In this document: piece by piece, positions 9,029 through 63,975 of the stretch | Position numbering within the stretch: position 1 is the stretch's first letter | How the letters are laid out: each line of letters starts with the position of its first letter | DNA from: Balanoglossus misakiensis | Lineage: Eukaryota; Animalia; Hemichordata | DNA: 64,000 nt | Direction of reading: 5' to 3' | Assembly: GCA_040954595.2 (NCBI GenBank) | Contig: CM082582.2 | Span: 12,917,777 to 12,981,776 of the forward strand | Notes under the pieces: generated by a model | Seen by the model: only the letters and a program-made list of their open reading frames with translations | Databases searched by the model: none | What the model was told of the DNA's origin: nothing | Position numbers and translations under genes: made by a program

Positions 9029-9089
9029 ATGTGGTTGTCTGCTTGTGTGTTAGTAGCTGCCACGCTTGTGGCGTGGACCGATGCACAAG
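9029..9089 (+). CDS. Exon 1: signal peptide [20 protein letters not shown]
   Basis: ATG 9029, hydrophobic core, T-D-A|Q cleavage-like site, consensus CAAG|gtaagt donor in phase 1 matching the downstream exons. Confidence 0.85.
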
Positions 9090-62900: not shown

Positions 62901-63975
62901 TCTGGTTTTACTGGATCAAACTGTCAAACTGGTACGTGAAAGATGTACACTTAAAATTATTCTCAAAATATGTTCATGCTCATTTATATTCACTTCTTCA
63001 CAGAATGTTAACTTCATTGATTTTCATGTCTAATTTTCACTGCGCTATTAAAATGAAACATTTAGTACTGTGATATACCGGTACATGTAACCACTATAGT
63101 TCTCATGTGTGCTGTGATCTTACGTCTATTTTGTGTTTACTTCAGTTGTAACCACCCCGTGTGCTAACAGTCCATGTTTGAATGGTGGTATTTGCACTGC
63201 AACTGGCACAAGCACTTATCAATGCGAGTGTCCATCTGGTTACACTGGGTTGAACTGTCAAACTGGTAAGTGAAAGATGAACACTTAAAATTGTTCTCAA
63301 AATATGTTCATGCTCATTTATATACAAACTGTCAAACTGGTAAGCTGTGGGTGATGTCAAACACCTAAATCAGAATTCTTGTTTTTAATTATCCATGTCT
63401 TTCTTATTAATTGAATTCTTATTATTTACTACGACTGTATCAAGCATTCTTCATTGTGTAACATGCACATTGAACTCTGTTCAGTCTCCCAGTGTCCTAT
63501 ATTACATCTACATTTTGTTATATTTCTGCAACATTGCTGCATTGTAAAAATATTGTGGCATTGTTCAACATTATACTGTTACAACATTGGCCAACCACAA
63601 TACACAGGTCCTGTAGGTATAAACTCTTGATTACACATCAGCTTGTTTATTGATATTTTTCCTGTCCACTACACTCCTACCAGTGATCGGTAACCCATGC
63701 AGTACCAGTCCTTGCCTCAATGGAGCTACATGTCTCAATATGCAAACCTATTACATCTGCATATGTCCATCTGACTACCTTGGTGTCAACTGTCAGACAT
63801 TAGAAGGTATGTATACCCAAGATTAAACCTCCTTTAGAGTCTGCCGCGCATATGTGTTTAGATTTTTGAAGACTTTCACACAGCTTCTTTTAGTGATCTT
63901 GTTTCTCTTATCCACAAAGATGGTTGTTGCGGTATGCAAATGGAGAATGGCAAAAGGTGTGAAAGAACAATGTGA
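9029..63975 (+). CDS. Giant secreted fibropellin-like protein: signal peptide - EGF - CUB - 112 EGF-like repeats (mostly 8-Cys variant); about 116 exons, about 4,800 aa; 3' end uncertain
   Basis: All internal exons have AG...GT (one GC) boundaries, are phase 1-1 and are multiples of 3 (EGF exons 114-135 nt). Splicing them in order gave no stop codon in my manual read. SP-EGF-CUB-(EGF)n is the N-terminal architecture of sea urchin fibropellins, but with far more repeats. Confidence 0.9.
10759..10890 (+). CDS. Exon 2: N-terminal 6-Cys EGF-like domain
   Basis: [44 protein letters not shown]; tttcag / G|gtaatg; 132 nt. Confidence 0.85.
11017..11397 (+). CDS. Exon 3: divergent CUB domain
   Basis: [24 protein letters not shown] and [16 protein letters not shown] match CUB hallmarks (SPNYP; F-x-[ST]-D...GF); ttctag / G|gtaagt; 381 nt. 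Confidence 0.88.
11504..11588. mobile_element. Small hairpin element, related to 12661-12735
   Basis: Both have GCCTTCG...CGAAGGC inverted arms and TAGTCTAGAACCTAGCC / GGCTAGGTTCTATACTA-type ends. Confidence 0.45.
11731..11993. repeat. (TAGA)n/(CAGA)n microsatellite
   Basis: Direct tetranucleotide run of about 260 bp. Confidence 0.97.
12661..12735. mobile_element. Small hairpin element, related to 11504-11588
   Basis: TAGTCTAGAACCTAGCCTTCGTGTTTT...AAAATACGAAGGCTTGCTTCGAGA. Confidence 0.45.
12965..13081 (+). CDS. Exon 4: 7-Cys EGF (extra Cys only between C5 and C6); start cap of the array
   Basis: [39 protein letters not shown]; tag / G|gtaaaa; 117 nt. Confidence 0.9.
13629..25276 (+). CDS. 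Exons 5-22: eighteen 8-Cys EGF exons
   Basis: 13629-13748, 14788-14922, 15353-15475, 15780-15896, 16722-16844, 17184-17312, 18254-18376, 18741-18857, 19770-19892, 20256-20378, 20886-21008, 21355-21474, 22777-22908, 23175-23291, 23432-23554, 23864-23986, 24447-24569, 25160-25276. Consensus [DN]PC-x4-CQNxxxC-x(4-9)-C-xx-[YF]-x-C-x-C-xx-C-[YF]-x-G-xx-C. Confidence 0.9.
13766..13891. mobile_element. 126-bp fold-back MITE with 9-bp target-site duplication (Mutator-like TSD length)
   Basis: Almost perfect palindrome CAATCTGATTAAAATCAGATGTAGGGAACGGCGACATG...CATGTCGCCGTTCCCTACATCTGATTTTAATCAGATTG, flanked by ACACCAACC at 13757-13765 and 13892-13900. Confidence 0.85.
16885..16962 (+). mobile_element. 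TTAA MITE family, decayed copy
   Basis: TTAACCTGTTCATGGCCATATGGTTTGGTCC...GACCTCTATAGGAGGG...GTGTTAA. Confidence 0.5.
18960..19400. repeat. Decayed 11-bp minisatellite (consensus about ACTGGGCTAGC)
   Basis: Recurrent units such as actgggcaagc, attgggctacc, agtgggcaagc, attgggttagt, actgggctagc, gctgggctaac. Confidence 0.65.
20838..20862. repeat. (CT)n microsatellite within a splice-acceptor pyrimidine tract
   Basis: Direct observation. Confidence 0.9.
21495..21587 (+). mobile_element. TTAA MITE family copy
   Basis: TTTACCCTTTCACTGCCATGGTTTAGTCCAAACCCATTGTTTTC...GGAAGGGTTAA, colinear with 2643-2735. Confidence 0.7.
23998..24361. repeat. Compound tetranucleotide microsatellite (TTCA/TCCA/TGCA/CTCA)n
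   Basis: Direct observation; the TTCA-TCCA-TGCA-CTCA block order occurs twice. Confidence 0.97.
25836..35139 (+). CDS. Exons 23-49: twenty-seven 8-Cys EGF exons
   Basis: 25836-25958, 26150-26272, 26413-26535, 26689-26811, 27551-27673, 27964-28080, 28416-28538, 28657-28779, 29066-29188, 29399-29521, 29648-29770, 29897-30019, 30280-30402, 30720-30842, 31110-31232, 31435-31557, 31673-31795, 31910-32032, 32319-32441, 32649-32771, 32964-33086, 33390-33512, 33714-33836, 34102-34224, 34347-34469, 34770-34892, 35017-35139. Confidence 0.9.
36792..47002 (+). CDS. Exons 50-77: twenty-eight 8-Cys EGF exons
   Basis: 36792-36914, 37274-37396, 37574-37696, 38073-38195, 38364-38480, 38701-38826, 38986-39108, 39256-39378, 39586-39708, 39876-39998, 40264-40386, 40517-40639, 40848-40970, 41179-41301, 41555-41677, 41845-41967, 42257-42379, 42524-42652, 43031-43153, 43551-43673, 43869-43991, 44195-44317, 44732-44860, 45106-45228, 45378-45500, 45654-45776, 46020-46142, 46880-47002. 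Confidence 0.9.
36939..37030 (-). mobile_element. TTAA MITE family copy, inverted
   Basis: TTAACCCTTTT...GAAAACAATGGATATGGACCAAACCATAGTAGTGAAACGATTAA is the reverse complement of the family pattern. Confidence 0.55.
38574..38651 (-). mobile_element. TTAA MITE family copy, inverted
   Basis: AAACAATGAGTTTGGACTGAACCATGGTGGTGAAAG is the reverse complement of the 5' part of copy 1 with one mismatch. Confidence 0.6.
41005..41039. repeat. (TTCA)n microsatellite
   Basis: Direct observation. Confidence 0.9.
42894..42993 (+). pseudogene. Decayed 8-Cys EGF pseudo-exon
   Basis: GAT-CA-TGC-AAT...AAC-CA-TGT remnants, then [12 protein letters not shown](+1 nt)QCTSPC; frameshifted, no splice sites. Confidence 0.5.
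47271..47629. repeat. Intronic tandem duplication of about 170 bp (47271-47440 and 47459-47629)
   Basis: Colinear copies GTAGTTA...TTTGAACTCATCACTC...TTAGAAAAGATTATC..AAATGATGTAA with scattered substitutions. Confidence 0.85.
47855..60701 (+). CDS. Exons 78-107: thirty 8-Cys EGF exons
   Basis: 47855-47977, 48414-48536, 48790-48912, 49231-49353, 49618-49743, 49892-50014, 50221-50343, 50521-50643, 50839-50961, 51162-51284, 51488-51610, 51941-52069, 52844-52969, 53206-53331, 53488-53613, 53790-53915, 54165-54290, 54502-54630, 54840-54965, 55175-55300, 56209-56334, 56638-56763, 56894-57019, 57283-57408, 57689-57814, 58019-58144, 58361-58486, 59513-59635, 59814-59939, 60576-60701. Confidence 0.9.
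48380..48405. repeat. (CAA)n microsatellite
   Basis: Direct observation, immediately upstream of the acceptor at 48413. Confidence 0.9.
48934..49122. mobile_element. Decayed TIR element (ACTGTAAAAC... ends)
   Basis: Starts CACTGTAAAACTGGAAATTTTCG and ends CGCGTTAATTTCCTGTTTTA; similar left ends at about 14251 and 41363. Confidence 0.4.
60421..60513 (+). pseudogene. Decayed EGF pseudo-exon with intact acceptor
   Basis: ttcttcttcag acceptor, [12 protein letters not shown] start and TCDVFS(F)T(R)IS, where TTT and CGT are single changes from TGT; frameshifted, no donor. Confidence 0.4.
61061..61186 (+). CDS. Exon 108: 7-Cys EGF (extra Cys only in the C3-C4 hairpin); end cap of the array
   Basis: [42 protein letters not shown]; ttttcag / A|gtaagt; 126 nt; canonical CPSGY is restored. 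Confidence 0.9.
61469..63806 (+). CDS. Exons 109-115: seven canonical 6-Cys Notch-type EGF exons
   Basis: 61469-61582, 61797-61913, 62225-62341, 62461-62583, 62812-62931, 63146-63265, 63684-63806; e.g. [36 protein letters not shown]. Confidence 0.9.
63920..63975 (+). CDS. Candidate terminal coding exon [18 protein letters not shown]
   Basis: Pyrimidine tract plus aag acceptor ending at 63919; phase-1 frame open to TGA 63973-63975. AAG acceptors also occur at 30279 and 38072. The window ends 25 nt later, so this may instead be intron. Confidence 0.35.

Follow-up and report, generated by a model that had tools for sequence, protein, structure and literature searches.

A hyalin-like family gene of Balanoglossus misakiensis with a 105-module EGF stalk likely held by head-to-tail disulfides

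Tandem EGF arrays are usually stiffened by calcium together with weak packing. A further means of stiffening a stalk is the fourth disulfide found in the EGF-like modules of integrins (I-EGF) and laminins (LE). The packing aromatic of one EGF is described as contacting the next domain at its major beta-turn (PMC4826273; PMC3415683), fibropellin as a C1s-like (CUB) domain followed by up to 21 EGFs (PMC10336842), and purified hyalin as a protein of ~350 kDa with HYR repeats whose 75-nm filament bears a globular head (PMC2289348; PMC9382459).

The window (the whole 64,000-nt stretch of the hemichordate Balanoglossus misakiensis analyzed here) carries 113 EGF-like modules on its plus strand, spanning 10761-63793, according to a six-frame scan with a loose six-Cys pattern; a stricter EGF pattern retrieved 110 on this strand and two on the minus strand, both microsatellite-like. 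The exon model (9029-63806, plus strand; Table 1) comprises 115 exons that encode a signal peptide, an EGF, a CUB domain and 112 single-EGF exons, and has a CDS of 14,386 nt without a stop (4,795 aa including 889 Cys, 18.5%). The post-CUB EGF exons are 114-135 nt long, 112/112 being multiples of 3 and of phase 1-1, with a phase-1 donor 7 nt past C6 (13 nt in the last module) and an in-phase AG just upstream of C1. Donors are GT in 114 cases and GC in one, introns range from 114 to 1,669 nt (median 253 nt), and one acceptor is ambiguous (27548 vs 27551), either choice being in frame. Scan and model thus agree with the initial annotation, which had counted 113 EGF exons with one domain each, all of phase 1-1. 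It had also spoken of a C-terminal end and expected a cDNA of about 14-15 kb; since the last exon closes with a GT donor and shows no stop, the gene extends past the window end, and both 113 EGFs and 14-15 kb are lower bounds.

Table 1. Features of the exon model, with positions numbered from the first letter of the window.
Feature	Position	Strand	Description	Basis
Exon 1	9029..9089	+	Start ATG with a leader resembling a signal peptide (20 codons + 1 nt)	Hydrophobic N-terminus by eye
Exon 2	10759..10890	+	Atypical six-Cys EGF of the family head	Aligns to family heads
Exon 3	11017..11397	+	CUB domain	Pfam PF00431 E 2.1e-8; Atlas CUB 0.95
Module 1	12965..13081	+	CysB-only EGF, the cap at which the stapled run opens	Exon model
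Modules 2-104	13629..60701	+	103 single-exon eight-Cys EGFs, each with CysA and CysB	
Modules 66-73	43551..46142	+	Youngest block, kin to module 58; contains the array's most similar module pairs	
Module 105	61061..61186	+	EGF with CysA only, closing cap	Best matches: A-only modules of Amphiura P0126 and Lytechinus P0188
Modules 106-111	61469..63265	+	Six canonical six-Cys EGFs	Exon model
Module 112	63684..63806	+	Canonical EGF like the post-cassette module of echinoderm relatives	65% over 37 aa to Amphiura P0126

The canonical EGF fold (a six-Cys core with major and minor hairpins) was recognized by Pfam in the window gene and by an AF2 model and its fold matches in the hemichordate relative P0033. 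Pfam EGF scored above the cut-off in four of the six post-CUB modules tested, the two eight-Cys ones falling below it, and EGF_laminin was below the cut-off for the window modules tested; three upstream ORFs gave no Pfam match above the cut-off. The unbroken EGF run is the longest among the 323 proteins compared (112 vs 48), although the total number of EGFs is not unique, as a Seison protein has 108 by the same loose pattern. O-fucose sites were counted in 24/112 modules.

Most modules of the array contain two additional Cys residues, namely CysA, located between C4 and C5, and CysB, located between C5 and C6 just before the packing aromatic. The order after the CUB domain is one module with CysB only, 103 with both, one with CysA only and seven canonical ones, such that each B precedes an A and each A follows a B. 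When 104 A and 104 B were shuffled over the 112 modules, every B was followed by an A in 0/200,000 trials. A profile built from 44 of the 103 modules and run against two protein libraries returned 248 proteins, 30 of which have any CysA or CysB; stapled runs (as they are called here after the putative disulfide) were found in echinoderm and hemichordate proteins and in one JGI protein. Ten of these 30 contain scattered A/B only and were dropped from later counts; together with pattern misses, such proteins explain the 15 lone-A and 6 lone-B adjacencies of the first count.

The comparison was then based on 27 echinoderm and hemichordate relatives, comprising profile matches and additions from the head search. 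Neighboring modules of these proteins show 125 cases of B(n)-A(n+1) and none of A(n+1) lacking B(n); within the same module, A stands alone in 18 cases and B in 28. The runs open with a B-only module in 26/27 cases, the exception being an N-terminally partial model, and seven apparent B-without-A adjacencies turned out on inspection to be pattern misses. A recount found a CysA module next to 134 of 136 B tails (130 exact, three with one more Cys and one truncated module), and the remaining two are followed by no module at all. The run of P0033, whose final B has a lone Cys after it instead of an A module, counts against the rule. The b-8...8-a rule, i.e., a B-only module, eight-Cys modules and an A-only module, is conserved in the 27 relatives.

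The closest relatives of the gene belong to a hyalin-like HYR family and not to Notch or fibropellin, the comparators initially chosen. Its first 192 aa match the Lytechinus 'hyalin' P0188 (blastp, 45% over 179 aa, E 5e-42) and also sea-star, brittle-star and Glandiceps proteins (range E 5e-42 to 2e-22). Identity of the EGF-CUB head to echinoderm members is 35-46%, that of the CUB alone to echinoid and holothuroid family CUBs is 48-50%, and the first EGF (exon 2) scores best with Glandiceps P0093 (112 vs 42-75). The head search returned 32 proteins (31 echinoderm and a weak cubilin); the sole 'fibropellin-1-like' match to the head was weak (E 7e-5), the best being HYR-family members. A CUB search restricted to proteins of 222-2000 aa found none, family members being longer or missed. 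The head tree, in which 0 branches are starred and one join is between long branches, does not decide between a hemichordate and a crinoid lineage, and further score comparisons were mixed.

The plan of the echinoderm members is signal-EGF-CUB-HYR(8-53)-b8888a-EGFx3-4-HYR-EGF, with a stapled cassette of 4-6 modules after the HYR repeats and, in 13/13 full-length members, a furin-like site and a hydrophobic segment at the C-terminus. Modules 105 and 112 of the window gene best match the A-only and post-cassette modules of this family, respectively; modules 106-111 have no counterpart at the matching position in the four echinoderm relatives compared. A HYR profile detected no HYR repeats in the 4,795-aa model, where the intron after the CUB exon measures 1,567 nt. 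Hyalin proper was rejected as the identity of the gene on account of this missing HYR-repeat body. Judged by sequence similarity, the gene is a member of the ambulacrarian hyalin-like EGF-CUB-HYR-TM family, strict orthology aside; the matches of its head and of modules 105 and 112, the lack of HYR repeats and the HYR-less start of Glandiceps P0093 lead us to place it as a family member with a cassette-built stalk. A C-terminal HYR, furin site and transmembrane tail may lie past the window. The type of tail is uncertain, as a crinoid adhesion-GPCR model (P0040) and small transmembrane proteins of hemichordates (P0033, P0200, P0056) likewise contain stapled EGFs.

We consider it likely that this family member has a 105-module stalk joined by head-to-tail CysB(n)-CysA(n+1) disulfides and predicted to be a calcium-independent stiff rod. 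CysB is the residue before the packing aromatic and CysA sits in the major beta-turn, and a B(n)-A(n+1) disulfide would likely lie at the canonical EGF-EGF packing site. The C6-C1 linker has 6 aa in 85/111 junctions, as in Notch, and 7 aa in 25/111. The calcium consensus is essentially lacking (E/Q before C1 in 11/112 modules, D/N at C3+2 in 6/112, complete in 0/112). An AF2 model was obtained for P0033, a relative and not the window gene itself, from a 15-sequence alignment (pLDDT 80-93 over the array). Three of its modules superimpose on the rod-shaped Notch1 EGF11-13 (Z 9.1, rmsd 3.3 A, 118 aa), whereas the fit to the bent EGF4-7 is poor (rmsd 14-16 A). AF2 may default to a Notch-like geometry. 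No solved structure with both extra Cys was present among the best 3 of 83 PDB matches.

According to this model, CysB of each module would bond CysA of the next through 104 staples, and the stapled modules would form a rigid rod with no need for calcium. At 3-3.3 nm for each of 112 modules, the rod would be ~300-370 nm long and is predicted to hold the EGF-CUB head at that distance from its anchor, so that the product may serve as a surface or matrix spacer, the role suggested at the outset. The gene with its stalk of such modules is real; the disulfide itself we infer.

Cassette size differs across genes (4, 5, 6, 8 or more, and 105 modules), and cassette length has changed over evolution. 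The modules are old and individually under purifying selection. The 103 eight-Cys modules share a mean identity of 38% outside Cys, with only 6 of 5,253 pairs reaching 85% or more; identity was 0.40-0.42 over lags 1-20, without a higher-order period. The 69 modules of equal length have a mean pN of 0.31 and a mean pS of 0.81, and the 15 closest pairs by pN show pN 0.01-0.10 and pS 0.24-0.60. Exonic variants were synonymous in 16/16 cases (among 80 listed of 666 substitutions), and of the 22 indels listed 20 are intronic and two compensate each other in module 111.

The best-surviving alternative, which we regard as doubtful, is a ruler tunable by splicing or allele, in which internal eight-Cys exons are skipped or copy-variable, making the rod variable in length within the species. 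Each of the 103 internal exons is neutral for frame and pairing, and annotated isoforms of echinoderm relatives vary the HYR stalk, whose position the stapled array holds here. The claim that any subset of these exons could be skipped or duplicated holds for the frame, their lengths being multiples of 3, and for Cys pairing only while both caps are kept: as pairing is between modules, skipping is harmless only if the B-only first and A-only last modules stay. Against tunability, the stapled cassette is identical in 35/35 annotated isoforms of five echinoderm genes and in three A. japonicus isoforms. These echinoderm RefSeq isoforms, produced by automated modeling of a repetitive array, vary chiefly in their number of HYR repeats, in most cases by multiples of ~84 aa; this supports length variation of the family stalk and speaks against it in the stapled part. 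Also unfavorable are the closest modules at pS of at least 0.24, the presence of only four matching pairs in an intron-intron BLAST and the lack of degenerate EGF pseudo-exons in the introns (best E ~1).

Exon number differing between alleles, another possibility raised initially, found no backing in contigs of one sample over 28-64 kb, where no credible exon-scale indel gives evidence of exon gain or loss. The multi-kb contig joints (e.g., 46151->44001, 44778->47929, 46066->50295) were rejected as exon indels and do not favor tunability, since they have sides of only 21-68 nt, lie at stretch edges or carry the letters of other modules. Likewise, the contig depth of ~2x at 45335-46668 (modules 71-73), which would suit a copy-variable array, was rejected as extra copies because summed contig depth is no copy number. 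Most likely, exon duplication changed stalk length in evolution, and the length of the stalk in this species is mostly constitutive. More doubtful still is the boldest version of the proposal, in which a new interdomain-disulfide EGF module forms a calcium-independent covalent rod of ~0.3 micrometre that replaced or preceded the HYR stalk, exon skipping was inherited, and cells set the distance between head and membrane in 3-nm steps.

It is improbable that the extra Cys cross-link separate chains, either as an in-register zipper, B(n)-A'(n+1), or as a network, giving a fibre or gel. EGF-repeat proteins do make fibres, for instance octovafibrin (PMC10336842), and an offset parallel dimer would also fit the b...a ends. 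On the other hand, the CysA and CysB positions already meet within one chain at the canonical pair interface, and the cassette lies within single-pass membrane proteins. Pairing of CysA with CysB inside each module would be a fourth internal disulfide. In the eight-Cys EGFs of laminin and integrin the fourth disulfide is likewise counted within the module, and here 103 modules carry both residues. Such pairing is very improbable, for it would leave an unpaired Cys at each end, in this gene and in the relatives with their unmatched A and B, and in the EGF fold CysA and CysB face opposite neighbors; from the B-only and A-only ends, the two are best read as B(n)-A(n+1).

Returning to a single gene with an intermodular staple, the proposal that its size is an assembly artefact or reflects several genes in a row is hardly credible: contig coverage is limited to 28-64 kb of the locus, but there the contigs X1 and X2 cover 30/30 bins in both stretches of 28,001-64,000 (they come from two DNA runs of a single sample, which may have been the source of the assembly, and are not independent of it), modules are as dissimilar as given above, and the array as a whole has a single B-only cap, a single A-only cap and no intron above 1,669 nt, in line with the one gene initially annotated.

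No description of a stapled EGF cassette was found in the literature consulted, which was largely open-access, and supplementary domain tables from echinoderm proteome studies may mention it; the inter-domain-stapled EGF module is probably undescribed. The analysis reveals a conserved cassette inside echinoderm 'hyalin' gene models, and one family appears to make long stalks from either of two unrelated repeats (HYR and stapled EGF), so that selection on stalk length and repeat replacement become testable. If true, covalent stapling of neighbors would be a new route to rigid extracellular rods, and the module could provide protein design with a modular nanoscale ruler.

With respect to known systems, Notch EGF11-13 shares with the window modules the fold, the 6-residue linker, the packing aromatic and a near-linear geometry (the latter taken from the P0033 model). 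Notch differs in its reliance on calcium and hydrophobic packing, its six Cys per module and its lack of a CUB head, whereas the window gene lacks the calcium consensus and would use a covalent staple. Integrin I-EGF and laminin LE modules have their extra Cys at positions other than CysA and CysB. Fibropellins and octovafibrin are secreted tandem-EGF structural proteins; the window gene has the fibropellin order EGF-CUB-EGFn, but fibropellin terminates in an avidin-like domain and module 112 points to the HYR family, and octovafibrin, unlike the window gene, has 29 six-Cys EGFs between lectin domains. The NCBI 'hyalin' models are likened here by sequence, and the name may not mean purified hyalin. 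Closest are the L. variegatus 'hyalin' (XP_041472953.1) and the S. purpuratus, Diadema, Asterias, Patiria, Acanthaster, Apostichopus and Amphiura members, which have, like the window gene, an EGF-CUB head, a b-8888-a cassette and the same post-cassette EGF. The Glandiceps talaboti protein XP_077980266.1 (P0093) shares the signal-EGF-CUB start followed directly by b888888 without HYR, in a model of only 508 aa that ends after a B module and is apparently truncated. The echinoderm members place 8-53 HYR between the CUB and a cassette of 4-6 modules, whereas the window gene lacks HYR in its 4,795 aa and has 105 stapled modules plus six additional canonical EGFs.

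The EGF gene (9029-63806, + strand, running past the window end) encodes a protein modelled at 4,795 aa, which contains only three Lys residues and two N-glycosylation sequons, and an O-fucose consensus occurs in 24 of 112 EGF modules. The composition suggests that this EGF-rod protein may be resistant to proteases. A single GC-AG intron is found in the gene, at 21009, after module 12. Depth of the contigs from two DNA runs of one sample is raised over modules 71-73 (45335-46668), to about twice that of the flanks in X1 and somewhat in X2, which could reflect either stacking of similar modules or extra copies hidden there. 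The short intronic elements listed in the table, where depth in the DNA runs is very high, are probably dispersed high-copy repeats.

Intronic repeats and the neighboring gene
Feature	Positions	Strand	Basis
Short intronic elements, very high depth	33173-33227, 36978-37031, 38606-38646, 41447-41492, 48934-49121		DNA runs
Long intronic microsatellites, TAGA and TTCA	11731-11993, 23995-24361
3' exons of the gene upstream of the EGF gene	245-4930	+	read by eye, ORFs

The upstream gene, possibly GPATCH1-like, includes acidic segments and others rich in Lys/His, and its C-terminus was read by eye as ...RRPTAADFM-stop, near 4929; three upstream ORFs gave no Pfam match above the cut-off.

The modules closest to those of the window belong to P0040, an incomplete model of a crinoid adhesion GPCR with 7tm_2 (Anneissia japonica XP_033111997.1), which starts with near-identical stapled EGFs (modules with extra CysA and/or CysB); either the stapled module was recruited to a GPCR or the gene model is chimeric. 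Small single-pass hemichordate proteins (P0200, P0056, and P0033, from Ptychodera and Glandiceps) carry a stapled run of eight modules, arranged in P0056 as FN3-b888888a-TM (b, CysB only; 8, both cysteines; a, CysA only); P0200 is similar in appearance, and in P0033 the last module of the run is a B module, with a lone Cys after it.

Giant EGF proteins also occur in Seison nebaliae (P0171 and P0124, for which different patterns count some 85-108 modules), and neither contains stapled runs. Among echinoderm hyalin-like genes (those of P0188, the Lytechinus 'hyalin', P0264, and P0205, with their isoforms), RefSeq isoform numbers reach X50 and the isoforms differ by HYR units, the repeats of the stalk, the length of which is apparently variable.
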